From IMG/VR virus record IMGVR_UViG_2547132415_000023: DNA of 29,605 nucleotides; one strand, given 5' to 3'. Positions 1,244-10,151 of this stretch are shown here, piece by piece. Under the pieces are notes generated by a model. That model searched no databases and was not told the DNA's origin. It saw nothing but the letters and a program-made list of their open reading frames with translations. The stretch's first letter is position 1. Each line of letters opens with the position of its first letter. A program made the translations under genes and the position numbers. This DNA is from a virus (Duplodnaviria; Heunggongvirae; Uroviricota; Caudoviricetes).

Positions 1244-1582
1244 TTATTCGCAAAGTGCTGTTGCGGCATCCATTACAGGATCCAAAGGAATTTTTACACC
1301 TGCATACTCTGGACTGTCTTTCCAAACAGCATCAATATTGCTCCCCTCAAGCTTTCCAGACTTTACTCCATCAATAGCAAAACCATTTAATGGGTATCGG
1401 TCATCAGTTGCTTTGTCGTATACAAAGGCATACTTACCGTTAACGCAAGACACCGTAGCTTTTTCAAAAGTTAACGGCCAATCCTCACCAAACTTAGCGC
1501 CATCTAAATCCTGTGTTTTTTCAGCGGCTAAGGAGCCAAAAGAAAAGGTAAGAAGCATAGCTAAAAAGAGTTTACGTTTCAT
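1244..1582 (-). CDS. Small secreted protein (cleavable signal peptide), cargo gene between cI and int; possibly YebY/DUF2511-like
   Basis: Likely true start at MKRKLFLAMLLTFSFGSLAAE (ATG at 1580-1582) with RBS AAGGGA upstream; the longer ORF to 1654 would overlap cI. N-terminus is basic then hydrophobic with an A-x-A-like cleavage site; two Cys in the mature part. It starts 9 nt after the cI stop on the same strand. Confidence 0.6.
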   Translation of the reverse strand: MKRKLFLAMLLTFSFGSLAAEKTQDLDGAKFGEDWPLTFEKATVSCVNGKYAFVYDKATDDRYPLNGFAIDGVKSGKLEGSNIDAVWKDSPEYAGVKIPLDPVMDAATALCE

Positions 1583-1590
1583 AATTTCCC

Positions 1591-2451
1591 TTATACGTGT
1601 TTTTCCAATGTGAAAACTACAACCCCGGCAGGCGTAATGTCGGTAATGTTGCATTCAAACTCAGCAGACTTATTTGACAACCTGACTTTTCCACCAGGTA
1701 AACGAATTACATCAAAAACATCAAGAGCGCCGTCGATATCAATTAACCAGCGACCATTACTTATATTCGAAGCAGAACAGTCGACAAGCCAAGAGGCAGC
1801 TACACCGTCAACAAAAATCAATTCCCCTGAGTTAGAAGGAATCATTGAGGGGTCAGGATGCCACGTTCCTGCATCCTTAAGCTCACCAGATTCAAGACGA
1901 GATTTTTTAATAGAAAAACCAGATGTGACATCTTCCCTGTTAGCTCGCATTTGCCCCTTGCCTGTTGCTAACCATTCCAGTGACGTATCGGTATCAAGAG
2001 CGCATGTAACAACAACATCACCAGGGAAAAAATCTCGCCTTACCCATGTGCTAATTGTGCCAGAGGAAATGCCGAGCAAATCACCGAGCTCCTTTTGCAT
2101 GGTAAAGCCATACGCATCAAGAATCCTACGCAAAACGGTTTTACCACCATTCGTCATAATCTCGTCATAAAGCTCTTTGCCTTTTAACTTGCAACTGGCT
2201 CGCTCGTGATTTGCATTTGCAAGCTCTCCATTTACAAGCCAATTGATATCAGCTCCCGTGTCAAGACAACACCTAACTATGACATTGCCAGGTATTGCAT
2301 CACGCTGAACCCAGCCGCTAACGCTGTGTTTAGCGATACCTAGCAGGTCAGCCAAATCCTTTTGCATCTTGACCCCATAGGCTGACATTAAGCGTTCCAA
2401 TACGCCGTTCGTTGCACTAACACGCCACTGAACATCAAGCTCAGAACTCAT
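1591..2451 (-). CDS. cI: 186-type CI immunity repressor with tandemly duplicated N-terminal HTH domain
   Basis: 286 aa. Residues ~14-75 (VLERLMSAYGVKMQKDLADLLGIAKHSVSGWVQRDAIPGNVIVRCCLDTGADINWLVNGE) and ~102-163 (VLRRILDAYGFTMQKELGDLLGISSGTISTWVRRDFFPGDVVVTCALDTDTSLEWLATGK) are clear internal repeats of a phage CI-type HTH domain. Divergent from the apl/cII operon and upstream of int, as in 186. Confidence 0.85.
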   Translation of the reverse strand: MSSELDVQWRVSATNGVLERLMSAYGVKMQKDLADLLGIAKHSVSGWVQRDAIPGNVIVRCCLDTGADINWLVNGELANANHERASCKLKGKELYDEIMTNGGKTVLRRILDAYGFTMQKELGDLLGISSGTISTWVRRDFFPGDVVVTCALDTDTSLEWLATGKGQMRANREDVTSGFSIKKSRLESGELKDAGTWHPDPSMIPSNSGELIFVDGVAASWLVDCSASNISNGRWLIDIDGALDVFDVIRLPGGKVRLSNKSAEFECNITDITPAGVVVFTLEKHV

Positions 2452-2944: not shown

Positions 2945-2976
2945 ATTTGATTATGCAAGTTAGAGGGAATTTAACC

Positions 2977-3486
2977 ATGTTTGATTTTCAGGTTTCCAAA
3001 CATCCCCACTATGACGAAGCATGCCGCATTTTCGCACAGCGTCACAACATGGCGAAGCTGGCCGAGCGTGCAGGTATGAACGTTCAAACGTTACGTAACA
3101 AGCTCAACCCGGAACAGCCTCACCAGTTCACGCCGTCTGAATTGTGGCTGCTGACTGACCTGACCGAAGACTCAACCCTCATTGATGGTTTTTTAGCGCA
3201 GATTCACTGCCTACCATGCGTGCCGGTTAATGAGTTGGCTAAAGACAAATTGCAGTCTTATGTCATGCGCGCAATGCGTGAACTCGGCGAACTGGCGAGC
3301 GGCGCGGTATCTGATGAACGTCTGACCATTGCCCGTAAGCACAACATGATTGAAAGCGTTAACTCCGGCATTCGCATGTTGTCATTGTCGGCTCTGGCGC
3401 TGCATGCACGTCTGCAGACTAATCCAGCTATGTCGAGCGTGGTCGATACCATGAGCGGTATTGGCGCATCGTTTGGTCTGATTTGA
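2977..3486 (+). CDS. cII: 186-type CII lysogeny-establishment activator
   Basis: Sequence from MFDFQVSKHPHYDEACRIFAQRHNMAKLAERAGMNVQTLRNKLNPEQPHQF is CII-like with an HTH. I chose the ATG at 2977; the track ORF starts at 2947 in the same frame. Confidence 0.8.
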   Translation: MFDFQVSKHPHYDEACRIFAQRHNMAKLAERAGMNVQTLRNKLNPEQPHQFTPSELWLLTDLTEDSTLIDGFLAQIHCLPCVPVNELAKDKLQSYVMRAMRELGELASGAVSDERLTIARKHNMIESVNSGIRMLSLSALALHARLQTNPAMSSVVDTMSGIGASFGLI

Positions 3487-4513: not shown

Positions 4514-6736
4514 TTGGCTGTTCAATTCGCTTATCCGTGGAACGTCCCACGGTCGGCAATCTCCAGCCCATACCTTACTTATGAGCAACAGCATCGCCGC
4601 GACCGTATGTTCGCGGCTTTGCTGCATGCAAAAAAGGTGCTTTCTCTCCAGCCCGACTGCGTGCGGTTAGATGTTTATCGCACTGCTGCGGTGCTGGAGC
4701 AAAATCAGGGTAGTCAACGAGCCAATGCATTTTTAATCAACTTCTGCAAAAAGGCATTGCCGCGTCTTGAAATGGTCGCAAAAAAATACGAATGCGCTGG
4801 TATCAACAGCAAGGTATCAACCGCTGTTTTTGGAAGTCATTTTGATACTCAGCAAATGCAATATCTGTCGTCACGCATGGTTAATATGGTCGCCCGATAT
4901 AACCGTCTCCCGGATATGTCGCGCGCTGATGTTGACCTGTTGGCCGCTGATATTGCTAATTTCATTCGTGGTGAACTTGCCAACATTAATGACCACGGAT
5001 TCGGCGAGCTTAAAACGCTGTACACCTGGTATATTCGTGCTGGCTTTATTTCCCTCCAATTTAACGTTATCCCACCACATTGGGAGCGGGTTGAAAAAAA
5101 ATATGTCGGTGCGGATGAAATCGCACCGGCTATCGCCAAAATGTTTAACGATGGGTGGTGGCGCGGTCGTTTGCGCCGTGTTGCAGCTACGTGGCGCGAA
5201 CACCTGCAAATTGCAGTCGGCAACGTCAGTAAGAAAAAAAACACTTACGCGAGTAAAAACTGCGTGACTGACTGGCGTGAACAAAAGCGCCGCACTCGTG
5301 AATTTCTCAAAGGTCTGGATCTCGAAGACGAAGACGGCAACCGTATCAGCCTGATTGAAAAATATGATGGCTCAGTTGCTAACCCTGCGATTCGCCGCTG
5401 TGAGCTCATGACCCGCATTCGTGGGTTTGAAAACATCTGTAATGAGCTCGGTTATGTCGGTGAGTTTTACACTCTAACCGCGCCGTCAAAATATCACGCC
5501 ACGACTAAAGCCGGTTACCGTAACAGCAAATGGAGCGGTGCCAGCCCGGCTGACACGCAAAACTATCTAACCGGTATCTGGGCGCGTATCCGTGCCAAAC
5601 TACATCGGGAAGATGTCCGTATTTTCGGTATTCGTGTCGCCGAGCCTCATCACGACGGCACTCCACACTGGCACATGCTGATGTTCATGCTGCCGGAAGA
5701 TGTTGAATATGTTCGCTCCATCGTCCGTAAATACGCATGGAAAGAAGACCGCCACGAACTGAAAAGCGATAAATCCAAAAAAGCACGTTTCCACGCCGAG
5801 TCCATTGACCCGGAGAAAGGCAGCGCAACCGGCTATGTTGCTAAATACATCTCAAAAAATATCGACGGTTATGCTCTCGATGGTGAAACCGATGATGAAA
5901 GCGGTGAGCTGCTGAAAGAGACAGCCCCCGCCGTTTCAGCATGGGCTGCGCGCTGGCACATCCGTCAGTTTCAGTTTATTGGTGGTGCGCCGGTGACGGT
6001 TTACCGTGAGTTGCGTCGCCTCGCTGATACCGAAACCGCGCACGGTCTGAGCGTTGAGTTTGCCGCCGTCCATGATGCCGCCGACGCTGGTGACTGGGCT
6101 GGTTATGTTAATGCTCAGGGTGGGCCGTTTGTCCGTCGCGATGATTTACAGGTGCGCACACTGTATGAACCGCGTACCGAGCTTAATCAGTACGGTGAGG
6201 AAACGGTATGTATTAAGGGGGTCTACGATTCCTCCATAGGTGCAGGAAGCCCGATTTTAACCCGGCTCACTCAGTGGAAGATTGTTCCGAAGCGTGCTGT
6301 TGATTTGGCCGTTGACCTTCAGGACGGCAAAGCCGTCCCTCGGAGTTCTGTCAATAACTGTACGGGAAGCGAAAGCGATCCACCGATACTGGATTTAACA
6401 AAACCACTGAGTCGGCGTGAAAGACGAGAATTGACCAACCGACTCAGGAAGCAAAAGCCAGCAGCACGGCGAAAATTCATCCACGGAACGGATGAGCAAA
6501 ACGCAGCTATAGCTAAAACTATCGACGAGATACATCTGACAACCGGCATTAATATCAGCCGGGGCGAAGCCCTGCACCTGATGGCCGGTGGTAAAAGTTG
6601 TTTTGATGGTAAATGGCTACGCGGAACGGCCAAAGGAGAAATATTTTCCGCAGCACCATCGCATGAGGCTAAAGCTCGGAAAATCCTTAATCGTGTTGCG
6701 GCGATGGCTGAAGCATCAAAACCAATACATGAGTAA
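4514..6736 (+). CDS. A: Replication initiation endonuclease gpA (rolling-circle initiator)
   Basis: 740 aa. HxH metal motif region EPHHDGTPHWHMLMF and catalytic-tyrosine region GYVAKYISKNIDGYA are typical of P2/186 A proteins. Position after the early genes fits. Confidence 0.9.
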   Translation: MAVQFAYPWNVPRSAISSPYLTYEQQHRRDRMFAALLHAKKVLSLQPDCVRLDVYRTAAVLEQNQGSQRANAFLINFCKKALPRLEMVAKKYECAGINSKVSTAVFGSHFDTQQMQYLSSRMVNMVARYNRLPDMSRADVDLLAADIANFIRGELANINDHGFGELKTLYTWYIRAGFISLQFNVIPPHWERVEKKYVGADEIAPAIAKMFNDGWWRGRLRRVAATWREHLQIAVGNVSKKKNTYASKNCVTDWREQKRRTREFLKGLDLEDEDGNRISLIEKYDGSVANPAIRRCELMTRIRGFENICNELGYVGEFYTLTAPSKYHATTKAGYRNSKWSGASPADTQNYLTGIWARIRAKLHREDVRIFGIRVAEPHHDGTPHWHMLMFMLPEDVEYVRSIVRKYAWKEDRHELKSDKSKKARFHAESIDPEKGSATGYVAKYISKNIDGYALDGETDDESGELLKETAPAVSAWAARWHIRQFQFIGGAPVTVYRELRRLADTETAHGLSVEFAAVHDAADAGDWAGYVNAQGGPFVRRDDLQVRTLYEPRTELNQYGEETVCIKGVYDSSIGAGSPILTRLTQWKIVPKRAVDLAVDLQDGKAVPRSSVNNCTGSESDPPILDLTKPLSRRERRELTNRLRKQKPAARRKFIHGTDEQNAAIAKTIDEIHLTTGINISRGEALHLMAGGKSCFDGKWLRGTAKGEIFSAAPSHEAKARKILNRVAAMAEASKPIHE

Positions 6737-6812
6737 TTCATATCCATATCATGCACATACAGCAATCGCTCTATTCGTTTTTTTTCTTCCCATCTTTTGC
6801 CAATACGTGATA

Positions 6813-6828
6813 CTGTATAAATATACAG
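6813..6828. promoter_or_regulatory. LexA (SOS) box overlapping the promoter of the downstream small ORF
   Basis: CTGTATAAATATACAG (CTGT-N8-ACAG), within TACTGTATAAATATACAGTA, a 19/20 match to the palindromic enterobacterial SOS-box consensus. 22 bp upstream of the ORF starting at 6850 (RBS GGGAGGG); possible -35 TTGCCA at 6797-6802. Confidence 0.75.
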
Positions 6829-6849
6829 TAACCCTATGGGAGGGATTTC

Positions 6850-7032
6850 ATGGTTGGCGAACATTTCAGCCGAACGCAGCAAAAGTGGGCTTGTGTGCAA
6901 TTTATTGCCGAGGTATCTCTGATTGCAAACTGCAAGCCATCAGACTTAAAGCTCGCGCTCACTCTCATTGCAGACCTAGCAAACAGCGAAAATAACGAAA
7001 CCGAAGATGATAATTTTTATAAGGCTGATTAG
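6850..7032 (+). CDS. SOS-controlled small protein, candidate Tum-like antirepressor N-terminal part
   Basis: 60 aa ORF directly behind the LexA box with a strong RBS. Ends at TAG 7030-7032, in frame with the following DinI-like ORF. Confidence 0.5.
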   Translation: MVGEHFSRTQQKWACVQFIAEVSLIANCKPSDLKLALTLIADLANSENNETEDDNFYKAD

Positions 7033-7035
7033 ATT

Positions 7036-7266
7036 ATGAGAATCAATATCACGTTGGATAAAGAGCAAAAATTAGGGCAACAGATCATTGATGCTTTTCA
7101 GAATGAAATAACACATCGAGTACAATGCGTTTTTCCTGCAACAAAAGTTAACGTTAAGAAAGGGTCAATGACTAGTGTAGAGGCTATCGGATTCGATAAA
7201 GAGACGGACAGAGAAACATTAGGCAGCATATTACAAGAGATTTGGGAAGACGATAGCTGGCGTTAA
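7036..7266 (+). CDS. DinI-family protein
   Basis: 76 aa: MRINITLDK...IIDAF..EITHRVQCVFP...ILQEIWEDDSW matches the DinI pattern (MRIEVTI...RRIQYAFP...ILQETWE..DDW). Same frame as the preceding ORF. Confidence 0.75.
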   Translation: MRINITLDKEQKLGQQIIDAFQNEITHRVQCVFPATKVNVKKGSMTSVEAIGFDKETDRETLGSILQEIWEDDSWR

Positions 7267-7308
7267 ACATAATAACCGTGCTGGCGCAAAAACTAGCTTT
7301 TTGCGTCG

Positions 7309-7349
7309 GCGGGGTTGAGTAACGAGCCCACGAGGCTTAAGTCCTGCCT
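7309..7349. repeat. Imperfect ~40-bp direct repeat, copy 1
   Basis: GGCGGGGTTGAGTAACGAGCCCACGAGGC... compared with GGCGGGGTTGAACAACGAGCTACGCGAGGC... at 7711; each follows a small hairpin placed just after a stop codon. Confidence 0.45.
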
Positions 7350-7465: not shown

Positions 7466-7693
7466 ATGCATCGACTATCAGGTGAAATTCCGCATCACAA
7501 AACCAAAAGCATCAAACTGATGGCCATCGTTCATCGTCTGCAGCAGATAATGGTCAATGAGAATTTGACACCCACAGAGCTGGTCGGGTGTGCCGAAATA
7601 GTCAGGGATAATTACGGCAAGCTGGATAGCATCAGCAGGCCGATACAATACGCCCCCCACCACGTCGACGATAGCAAACGTCGTCAGCGCTGA
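7466..7693 (+). CDS. Hypothetical small protein
   Basis: 75 aa ORF with GAGGGCG RBS, bracketed by the two ~40-bp direct repeats. No recognisable motif. Confidence 0.35.
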   Translation: MHRLSGEIPHHKTKSIKLMAIVHRLQQIMVNENLTPTELVGCAEIVRDNYGKLDSISRPIQYAPHHVDDSKRRQR

Positions 7694-7710: not shown

Positions 7711-7752
7711 GGCGGGGTTGAACAACGAGCTACGCGAGGCGTTAGCCCGCCC
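7711..7752. repeat. Imperfect ~40-bp direct repeat, copy 2
   Basis: See copy 1; about 80% identical over ~40 bp. Confidence 0.45.
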
Positions 7753-7956
7753 CGTAGAGACCGCTCCAAACCGTCGCCCTGAATGCCGGTTTTTTTATGT
7801 CATTTTCCCGCGATTTCCCCGTTTTTTAGCCGTGCATGCATCAGGTGCATGGTTTTGCATGCGTCAGTCTTGCCCCTTCTGTCCGTGCGCCGCCAGAGCT
7901 GGCGCGGATCCAGAGTTGTCATGCAACTGCATTAAAACCGACCCATAAAGCGGGCA

Positions 7957-7975
7957 GGCGTGGCGGGGAAAGCAT
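7957..7975 (+). other. cos site (19-nt cohesive-end sequence) of a P2/186-type phage
   Basis: GGCGTGGCGGGGAAAGCAT followed by TGCGCGC matches my recollection of the P2/186 cohesive ends (P2 GGCGAGGCGGGGAAAGCAC). Orientation agrees with a leftward portal gene to its right. Confidence 0.55.
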
Positions 7976-8239
7976 TGCGCGCAACGAACAAAAATGATTT
8001 TTGGAACTTTGATTGTTTTGGCAACGTTGTCTTAATGTAGTTGATGTCTAATGACTTATGTGCTGTCATAGCGGCAATAGCTTGTATGACTCTTATCGAT
8101 AGACTAATTAAATTATATAAATCAGATTACTAATGTGCTAAAGCGATTATAAGACTAACTCCATCATAAATTAAAGAATTAAGTTAGTCTGTTAAAATAG
8201 GTGAATTGAGAGAAAGTAATTTATAAATTAGGAGGAAAT

Positions 8240-9568
8240 ATGAATTGTAATGAACTTTTTTATTCCGCTGACAACCATGCATTAACGTTGCATGAAAGAA
8301 CAAAGTTATCTACGGTTGTTTTAGATAAAGGCATTACAAAAAAGAATGAATTAATAGAGTTTTTGAGAGAGGAATTAAAAGGGTCATTTGGTTGCGACGT
8401 TAAGTTTTGGTTGCAAGGATCATACAAAAGTCACACTCTCATTAAGCCTGTTGATAAGTTTTCTTCATATGATATTGATGTGGGCATTTATTTGTTCTTT
8501 GATGCAGAGGCTGAAGAGATTAATTCAAAGGATGTAAAGGATACGTTGAAAGATGCTTTACTATCTTACTGCGAAATAAATAACGAGGCGAAGATTCAGG
8601 AGTCAAAGAATGCGTGTGAGGGATTAATATTCTCCTCCTTTCTTACAATCGACACCCCTATCTATTATAAAACAACGACAAAAGTAAAACTTGCAACAGA
8701 TAAAGGTTGGAGTGATAGCGATCCAAAAGCTATACAAGACTGGTTAACAAATTCACATGCTACAAAACCAGCTAGAGCATTAATGAAACGGCTCGTCCGT
8801 TACTTTAAAGCATGGGTTAATGTACAGTGGCACGGTACTTCATTTAAAAAAATACCTTCGTTAGCGATAAATGTCCTAGTTGCTAATAACTTAAGTATCC
8901 ATGATAGAGAGGACGATTGTTTTATATATACAGTGTTAGCTATTTGTGAGCAATTAGAGCGCTCAATGGAAGTAGAGAATCCTCTTAATGGCACCAATTT
9001 GCTTGCGATGCCTGATGATGCTTTAACTTTCGCGCATCAAAAGCTTCAACAATTGAAGAAAGTTTGTATAGATTGTATAGATGCCAACGAAAATGAAAGG
9101 AATATAAATTTTTCTAATTTATTCCAACATTATTTCCCTCAGGTAACGATCGTATCAAACGGAGGGGGAACTGGTCTGCCAGCGATTACTACAACCCCAG
9201 AAATATCTGTCTGTCGTTATGATAAACATGGTTCCCACATTGAAACTGTCTTAACGGATCAGTTAACGGTTGATAAAGGTGACTCATTAACATTCACCAT
9301 TTGTAATCCTGGGGCTTTTAGCCCTTATGCTCAGACGAAATGGACGGTTAGAAATGTTGGTAGCCAAGCTAATGATGCCAATGATATAGGGCACATTGAA
9401 TATGGAAAACCCAACGAAAGTCATAAACGGGGAACGTCTTATACTGGCTCGCATACGATGGAATGTATGGTTACTTACAATGGCGCTGTTTTAGGTTTAA
9501 AAGTTATTCAAGTTATAGTACGGCCTGCAATTTCTGTTAAAAGACCTATTAGAAAGTTTTGGAGATGA
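8240..9568 (+). CDS. cGAS/DncV-like (SMODS-type) nucleotidyltransferase with C-terminal extension; candidate signal synthase of a defence module
   Basis: 442 aa, strong RBS AGGAGG at 8231-8236. Pol-beta NTase signature G60-S61 ... D78-I-D80 (QGSYKSHTLIKPVDKFSSYDIDVGIYLF), with further acidic residues downstream. About 140 C-terminal residues are Gly/Thr/Ser-rich and beta-like with no recognised match. Low-GC gene. Confidence 0.7.
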   Translation: MNCNELFYSADNHALTLHERTKLSTVVLDKGITKKNELIEFLREELKGSFGCDVKFWLQGSYKSHTLIKPVDKFSSYDIDVGIYLFFDAEAEEINSKDVKDTLKDALLSYCEINNEAKIQESKNACEGLIFSSFLTIDTPIYYKTTTKVKLATDKGWSDSDPKAIQDWLTNSHATKPARALMKRLVRYFKAWVNVQWHGTSFKKIPSLAINVLVANNLSIHDREDDCFIYTVLAICEQLERSMEVENPLNGTNLLAMPDDALTFAHQKLQQLKKVCIDCIDANENERNINFSNLFQHYFPQVTIVSNGGGTGLPAITTTPEISVCRYDKHGSHIETVLTDQLTVDKGDSLTFTICNPGAFSPYAQTKWTVRNVGSQANDANDIGHIEYGKPNESHKRGTSYTGSHTMECMVTYNGAVLGLKVIQVIVRPAISVKRPIRKFWR

Positions 9569-9572
9569 TAGT

Positions 9573-10151
9573 ATGTGGGAACTAATGCCACCAAAAGCTA
9601 AATACGGCTTATCAATTGGAATTTCTATTCTTATCTTCCTTATGTATAAGGAATGTTTTAAGTTTCCTTTTGCTAGATCTATCTCCTTTACGATCAGTAC
9701 CATTACCATCCTTGCTTGGTTATTTGGAAAGTATTTATGGAAATATATTTATTTTGGTATCTTTAAACGGAATTTTTGCCCAGATTTTAATGGCACGTGG
9801 ACGGCTACGATAAAATCAAATTTTAGCCCGAATACTCAGGTTGAATTTCCATTAAAGATAGAGGCTAATTTCTTCTCTGTTAAGATGACAGGCAATACCA
9901 CTATCGGAAGAACCTACACAAATCTATGTAAAATTGTTCGTGCAGAAGATGATAGTTTCGAGTTGGTATATATGTTTAGAGTTATGAATGACTCTCCATC
10001 TGATTCTGATGCTGTTTTCTATGAAGGGGCGGCGAGGTTACGTGTAGTTGACATTGACTCTATGCAAATGATAGGGGTCTTTTGGACAAATCGATGTTGG
10101 CAAAATAATTTAAACACTGCTGGTTCTATAACTTTAACGAAACAGAGTTAG
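9573..10151 (+). CDS. Small membrane effector candidate: two N-terminal TM helices plus beta-rich C-terminal domain (Cap15-like)
   Basis: 192 aa, starts 4 nt after the NTase stop with its own GGAG RBS. Hydrophobic segments LSIGISILIFLMY (~13-25) and ISFTISTITILAWLF (~37-51); the C-terminal ~130 aa shows alternating hydrophobic patterns suggesting beta strands. Confidence 0.65.
   Translation: MWELMPPKAKYGLSIGISILIFLMYKECFKFPFARSISFTISTITILAWLFGKYLWKYIYFGIFKRNFCPDFNGTWTATIKSNFSPNTQVEFPLKIEANFFSVKMTGNTTIGRTYTNLCKIVRAEDDSFELVYMFRVMNDSPSDSDAVFYEGAARLRVVDIDSMQMIGVFWTNRCWQNNLNTAGSITLTKQS

Follow-up and report, generated by a model that had tools for sequence, protein, structure and literature searches.

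Does the palindrome behind replication gene A place the induction of this prophage under SOS control, and if so, through which protein? The DNA analyzed here, a stretch of 29,605 nucleotides that we call the window, is a prophage of the P2 family and, within it, of the 186/PSP3 group (genus Eganvirus). An earlier note on it, made from the letters, had proposed that a near-consensus LexA box controls an operon downstream of gene A, and that the prophage is induced through an antirepressor rather than by autocleavage of CI. The 186 p95-tum system has been under study since 1989 and is a textbook case. We consider it very likely that the box together with tumA-tumB brings about SOS induction of this PSP3-type, 186-like prophage, acting from LexA through TumA on CI. 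The module itself was already known: it is a near-identical copy of the annotated tumA-tumB of PSP3 and 613R3, and what we provide is a correct annotation, not a discovery.

On the minus strand, the window carries int (172-1221) and the immunity repressor gene cI (1591-2451). The plus strand follows with an analogue of apl (2573-2944), cII (2947-3486) and gene A (4514-6736); the late genes follow cos. When the region from A to cos is compared by megablast, E. coli prophages and vB_EcoM-613R3 are closest (97-98%), the Salmonella phages SW9, SI22, PSP3, and SEN1 come next (88-93%), and then 186 (84%). The tumA-tumB pair (6850-7266) lies between A and cos (7959-7977) and is codirectional with A, which is the position of a tum operon.

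A near-consensus LexA box behind gene A

The box, TACTGTATAAATATACAGTA, occupies 6811-6830, within the interval 6797-6850 reported earlier. We took as a gammaproteobacterial LexA operator the 16-bp core CTGT-N8-ACAG inside the 20-bp palindrome TACTGTATATATATACAGTA. The box has this core and agrees with the consensus palindrome at 19 of 20 bases, the single mismatch being at a central position. It is the sole site with three or fewer mismatches in the 29.6-kb window, and none of 100 dinucleotide-preserving shuffles of the window yielded one. The near-consensus box is thus confirmed. Scoring with a LexA-box matrix, which the earlier note had named as a check, was run as a heterology index of the Berg-von Hippel/Lewis type. 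The values are approximate; the matrix was built from 21 known E. coli operators. These operators range from 0.5 to 9.4; the box, at 0.8 to 1.2, is inside this range and, with an index of about 1, outscores most chromosomal SOS operators of the set. It is also below all shuffles, in which the best site per window has a mean index of 12.1 and a minimum of 6.6. By sequence, strength and position, 6811-6830 has what is expected of a LexA (SOS) operator, and the literature on 186 and PSP3 suggests that LexA would bind it.

The core CTGT-N8-ACAG, expected 0.29 times in the window, occurs twice. The other occurrence (1314-1329) belongs to a weak LexA-like site, GACTGTCTTTCCAAACAGCA (1312-1331), which lies some 90 bp before the start codon of int and inside an ORF of the DUF2511 family. 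We dropped it as a LexA operator: its index of about 9.1 falls in the range reached by shuffled sequence, so this site is probably due to chance.

We then considered how the box is conserved among relatives. We gathered 80 IMG/VR loci by the C-terminal 198 residues of gpA and not by the box, which avoids selecting on the box itself. TACTGT-N8-ACAGT is found at the same offset after gene A in 77 of the 80, or in 77 of the 78 that can be assessed; of the remaining three, two end before the box at a contig end, and one (L011) is split by an insertion sequence (IS). We compared the columns of 65 unique intergenic sequences, extracted by means of a pattern in which the arms are fixed. Invariant columns number 6/6 in the left arm and 5/6 in the right, while the central 8 bases are invariant at 1/8 and come in at least 11 spacer variants. 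The arm invariance reflects the data, because a looser CTGT-N8-ACAG scan showed no altered arms at assessable loci except the IS-split one. Among the same 65 sequences, 5 of 19 columns are invariant in the 5′ untranslated region and 0 of 15 at 6764-6778. Invariant arms around a free spacer are the pattern expected of a LexA site, as opposed to an RNA stem or neutral DNA.

The promoter and the tumA-tumB transcription unit

The palindromic box was identified from its alignment with the 186 LexA site, from the consensus and index scoring, and from its conservation. In a four-way alignment, it lies base for base on the 186 LexA site and the -10 region of promoter p95. The left arm of the box, TACTGT (6811-6816), corresponds to the p95-type -10 hexamer. 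It is 18 bp from a -35-like hexamer, TTCCCA (6787-6792, plus strand), which is aligned with the annotated p95 -35, TTCACA. Directly 5′ of this hexamer is a conserved T tract (6779-6786, plus strand), and across the 65 unique relatives the majority base at 6779-6792 has a mean frequency of 0.95. The homologous interval of the 186 GenBank record carries p95, annotated "SOS-dependent transcription of SOS operon," with -35 TTCACA and -10 TACTGT; a LexA protein_bind feature shares its first base with the -10. The next gene after p95 is tum, annotated "expression repressed by LexA; inhibits CI DNA binding." The 3′ end of the annotated 186 promoter feature falls within the box, at about 6823 in window numbering, and this is the likely start site. 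Since the feature ends inside the box, bound LexA would cover the -10 hexamer and probably the start site.

A generic sigma-70 consensus scan called no promoter at the box. It missed the p95-type promoter because the hexamers TTCCCA and TACTGT are both weak, and we therefore assigned the promoter by homology to 186 p95. On this homology, the box overlaps the core promoter and probably the start site of tumA. The suggestion that the box sits on the likely promoter downstream of gene A holds up well: it is aligned with the 186 p95 -10 and LexA site, both directly after A. From the end of the box it is 19 nucleotides to the ATG of tumA (6850), and a Shine-Dalgarno sequence, GGGAGGG (6838-6844, plus strand), can be read directly between them. 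The 186 fragment homologous to about 6751-7280 serves experimentally as a UV-inducible tum module (PMC7708051).

Upstream of the promoter, directly 3′ of the gene A stop and about 60 to 80 bp from the likely start, is another conserved block, TCCATATCATGCACATACAG (6744-6763). It is invariant at 15 of 20 columns in the 65 unique relatives, which include both Tum and both CI types; the next 15 bp are fully variable. The block has no significant RNA fold and no Rfam match, and the whole window had no Rfam match. We rejected a reading of block and box as a terminator after gene A because neither folds significantly.

The first gene behind the box, tumA (6850-7032, plus strand), encodes a 60-aa putative antirepressor of the PSP3-type CI. 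Its product is 98.3% identical to PSP3 TumA, annotated "similar to 5′ end 186 tum; UV induction of prophage," and 100% identical to a vB_EcoM-613R3 ORF annotated "UV induction of prophage"; it also matches phrog_1993. TumA has no match in Pfam, NCBIfam, or PDB, and BLASTP gives no alignment with 186 Tum. By Smith-Waterman, TumA aligns with residues 13-52 of 186 Tum with a score of 60, compared to 21 ± 4 in shuffles, none of 5,000 of which reached 60. By hhalign, the PSP3-type and 186-type profiles match over 32 columns with a probability of 82.5% and an E value of 1e-5. Homology to the antirepressor N-terminal half of 186 Tum, seen by these two methods only, is thus weak but significant. PSP3 and Fels-2 have a split tum in which the upstream gene is the antirepressor (PMC3121763); for PSP3 TumA, this role is a personal communication cited in that paper. 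The 186 Tum protein binds CI and blocks its operator binding (Shearwin et al. 1998, cited in PMC3121763 and PMC7708051), and on this precedent, TumA would bind CI. A literature search under the names tumA and tumB found no papers.

The second gene, tumB (7036-7266, plus strand), encodes a 76-aa DinI-like protein (Pfam DinI, 1.4e-17; PDB 1ghh, DinI, 3e-8), which may modulate the RecA filament. With the C-terminal half of 186 Tum (residues 71-146), it shares 68% identity. Since tumA resembles PSP3 TumA and tumB is a separate ORF of the DinI family, we take the module to be the split tum of PSP3 and Fels-2.

How far the SOS transcript extends can be judged from the 186 annotation. Behind tumB is a strong RNA hairpin without a clear U tail (7273-7317, plus strand; -27.2 kcal/mol, z = -3.4), located where 186 has its partial terminator t95a; a terminator-like element was called separately at 7280-7297. 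It is followed by a 75-aa ORF (7466-7693, plus strand) like PSP3 gp37 (phrog_11386, 8e-43) and syntenic with PSP3 and 613R3. This ORF stands in place of 186 orf97 and is a possible distal gene of the transcript. The unit likely ends at a weak stem with a T run (7770-7797, plus strand), the positional equivalent of 186 t95b (2404-2431 in L001). The operon region is bounded by cos, GGCGTGGCGGGGAAAGCAT, whose 19 nucleotides (7959-7977) are identical to positions 1-19 of the annotated 186 cos. The same region contains a direct repeat, GGCGGGGTTGA[G/A][T/C]AACGAGC, with one copy after tumB (7309-7328), overlapping the 3′ half of the hairpin, and another after the 75-aa ORF (7711-7730).

The CI repressor and the proposed route of induction

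The presumed target of TumA is the product of cI, a 286-aa immunity repressor of the 186 type (Pfam Phage_CI_repr in two stretches and Phage_CI_C). It is 100% identical to 613R3 CI, 98.3% to PSP3 CI, and 32% to 186 CI. Residues 105-279 match the 186 CI crystal structure 2fjr (E = 1e-21), and the C-terminal domain is the 186 CI oligomerization domain PF16452, with matches to both 2fjr and 2fkd. Lambda-type repressors, which cleave themselves, carry a C-terminal S24 domain with a Ser-Lys dyad; in CI, nothing matched Peptidase_S24 at an E value of ≤0.01. The earlier remark that no S24 Ser-Lys peptidase is present in the CI C terminus is borne out by this domain assignment. The distribution of the two proteins is also informative. 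In the phage collection, the 10 records with a TumA of at least 95% identity are precisely those with a CI of at least 73%. The next-closest CI, at 36%, is from Yersinia phage vB_YenM_31.17, which is also the one further phage with a TumA match, a distant one (42%). This co-occurrence supports a cognate antirepressor-repressor pair.

The mechanism that we propose carries steps over from 186 and PSP3, where 186 is induced through the LexA-controlled p95-tum (PMC7708051) and these phages are UV inducible because of tum (PMC2771037). The window itself does not contain the host genes lexA and recA. In a lysogen, a host LexA dimer would sit on the box at 6811-6830, over the -10 and probably the start site, and by covering both it would keep tumA-tumB silent. 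Upon DNA damage, RecA would become active, LexA would cleave itself, and the p95-type promoter would fire. TumA would then bind the non-cleavable CI and block its operator binding, derepressing the early lytic promoter, and the DinI-like TumB probably tempers the activity of the RecA filament. The proposal of SOS induction through an antirepressor instead of CI autocleavage is thus supported by the p95 alignment, the split tum, and a CI that lacks S24. The prophage can be annotated as SOS inducible via LexA, TumA, and CI rather than by repressor cleavage. It is predicted to be induced by DNA-damaging antibiotics, with no induction in a lexA(Ind-) host.

Would the box necessarily serve prophage induction? 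Its control could be limited to the DinI-like TumB, an accessory function of the SOS response, much as host dinI is governed; the 60-aa ORF would then be no antirepressor, and no induction of the prophage would follow. TumA indeed comes without a curated family, a structure, or BLASTP similarity to 186 Tum, and strong conservation with 186 is limited to the DinI-like half. However, the distant homology of TumA to the antirepressor half of 186 Tum is significant, TumA strictly co-occurs with the PSP3-type CI, and the annotation of PSP3 TumA names UV induction, with an antirepressor role reported for it (PMC3121763). In 186 itself, it is the N-terminal part that distinguishes active Tum from truncated products annotated as modulating SOS induction. 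We therefore find it improbable that the box controls TumB function alone.

Still less credible is induction in the manner of lambda, with RecA stimulating CI to cleave itself and the LexA box being incidental. This is the default paradigm for SOS-inducible prophages, and that is its sole recommendation: we found no support for CI self-cleavage, and the C-terminal domain of this CI is PF16452. We give equally little credence to the palindrome being a product of chance or a structural element, such as a hairpin or terminator after gene A, and not an operator for a protein. As RNA, the box could form an 8-bp AU-rich hairpin, but the fold lacks both significance (z = -1.3) and a U tail. Shuffled windows did not produce a comparable site, and the CTGT/ACAG arms are invariant around a free spacer, as in LexA sites, where a conserved stem would show compensatory changes. 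SOS induction through LexA, TumA, and CI accounts for these observations best.

The CI of this group has a feature of its own, two tandem Phage_CI_repr helix-turn-helix (HTH) domains at residues ~14-83 and ~99-173, followed by the 186-type C-terminal domain. The internal repeat scores 183 by Smith-Waterman, compared to 24.6 ± 4.5 in shuffles. A 2011 comparison said of PsP3 CI only that its distinction was a "longer C-terminal domain" (PMC3448106). In CIs that are 72 to 76% identical (Midge, SW9, and RCIP0057), the first HTH is divergent, and there is almost no change in the second HTH or the C-terminal domain; the CI variants with a divergent first HTH come with a TumA that is about 98% conserved. 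One may speculate that the PSP3-type module is functionally distinct from that of 186, with the first HTH setting immunity specificity, TumA acting on the invariant part, and the tandem-HTH CI being an uncharacterized architecture. We hold this only tentatively and think it rather unlikely. If true, a single TumA could act in trans to induce several prophages of the PSP3 type that differ in immunity, like the Gifsy antirepressors.

Related prophages, insertions and cargo

The window shares the gene order of A, LexA box, tumA, tumB, gp37-like ORF, and cos with its closest known systems, Salmonella phage PSP3 (AY135486 / NC_005340) and also Escherichia phage vB_EcoM-613R3, SEN1, SW9, SI22, Midge, and Klebsiella phage RCIP0057. 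They have the same LexA box, and the adjoining base 6810 differs, being A in the window instead of C. The window tumB has diverged from that of PSP3 and is near-identical to that of 613R3.

In 186 (U32222 / NC_001317), as in the window, the SOS operon lies after gene A and before cos, the LexA box covers the -10, and CI is of the non-cleavable 186 type. The choice of 186 Tum as the model for an operon in this position was therefore sound, with LexA control of p95-tum known from 186 (PMC7708051) and split tum genes from PSP3 and Fels-2 (PMC3121763). The differences are several. Tum is a single 146-aa protein in 186, whereas the window has ORFs of 60 and 76 aa; the antirepressor halves share only about 34% identity over 32 columns; the window CI has an extra N-terminal HTH; and orf97 is replaced by the 75-aa ORF. 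The box spacer is ATAAATAT in the window and ATGTTTAT in 186. Indeed, two Tum types are found behind the box: the 186 type, mostly fused (146 aa), has spacer ATGTTTAT, and the PSP3 type, always split (~60 aa), has ATAAATAT. More distant parallels are Gifsy-1/2/3 (GfoA and GftA, with dinI) and N15 (AntC), in which a small LexA-repressed antirepressor inactivates a non-cleavable repressor and a dinI homologue is in the operon (PMC3121763). Their repressor and antirepressor families are unrelated to those of the window, and the Gifsy order is reversed, with dinI first.

Two relatives have an IS in the AT-rich spacer of the same LexA box. In E. coli ET490 (L084, NZ_CP100947), ISKox3, of the ISL3 family, occupies 712-2053. 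In L011 (IMGVR_UViG_3300015155_000007), ISKox3 lies at ~3172, and the box is broken off after TACTGTATAAATAT. The junctions read TACTGTATAAATAT / IS / ATAAATATACAGTA, with an 8-bp target duplication, ATAAATAT. The insertion cuts tumA off from the p95-type promoter and disrupts the operator beyond function, and the IS-split prophages (ET490 and L011) are probably non-inducible or misregulated.

Elsewhere in the window, the DUF2511 ORF (1244-1654, minus strand) lies between int and cI and overlaps the 3′ end of the cI ORF. A homologue in Midge is annotated as a putative periplasmic protein, another is present at the same position in SW9, and the RCIP0057 ORF at this position is annotated only as hypothetical. 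It is likely a lysogenic-conversion or moron gene. The 123-aa ORF at the apl/cox position (2573-2944) has no Pfam match and only a weak Cox-like PHROG match (8e-5), in agreement with the literature, in which the PsP3 Apl analogue is a singleton.

The AT-rich DNA between cos and the portal gene carries a type I CBASS cargo (8240-10151, plus strand). A CD-NTase cyclase (8240-9568; PADLOC cyclase, 1e-159; Pfam DncV-like NTFase and AGS_C) is followed by a 2TM, Cap15-like effector (9573-10151), both on the plus strand. Although these genes are on the same strand as tumA-tumB, we rejected them as members of the SOS operon, because cos and the region of the t95b-equivalent terminator come between and the CBASS genes have their own AT-rich DNA. 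This cargo beyond cos sets the window prophage apart from the PSP3 group, and it had no match in 5,426 complete E. coli genomes or in the phage collection. The arrangement A-tumA-tumB-CBASS-portal is found on many public contigs.
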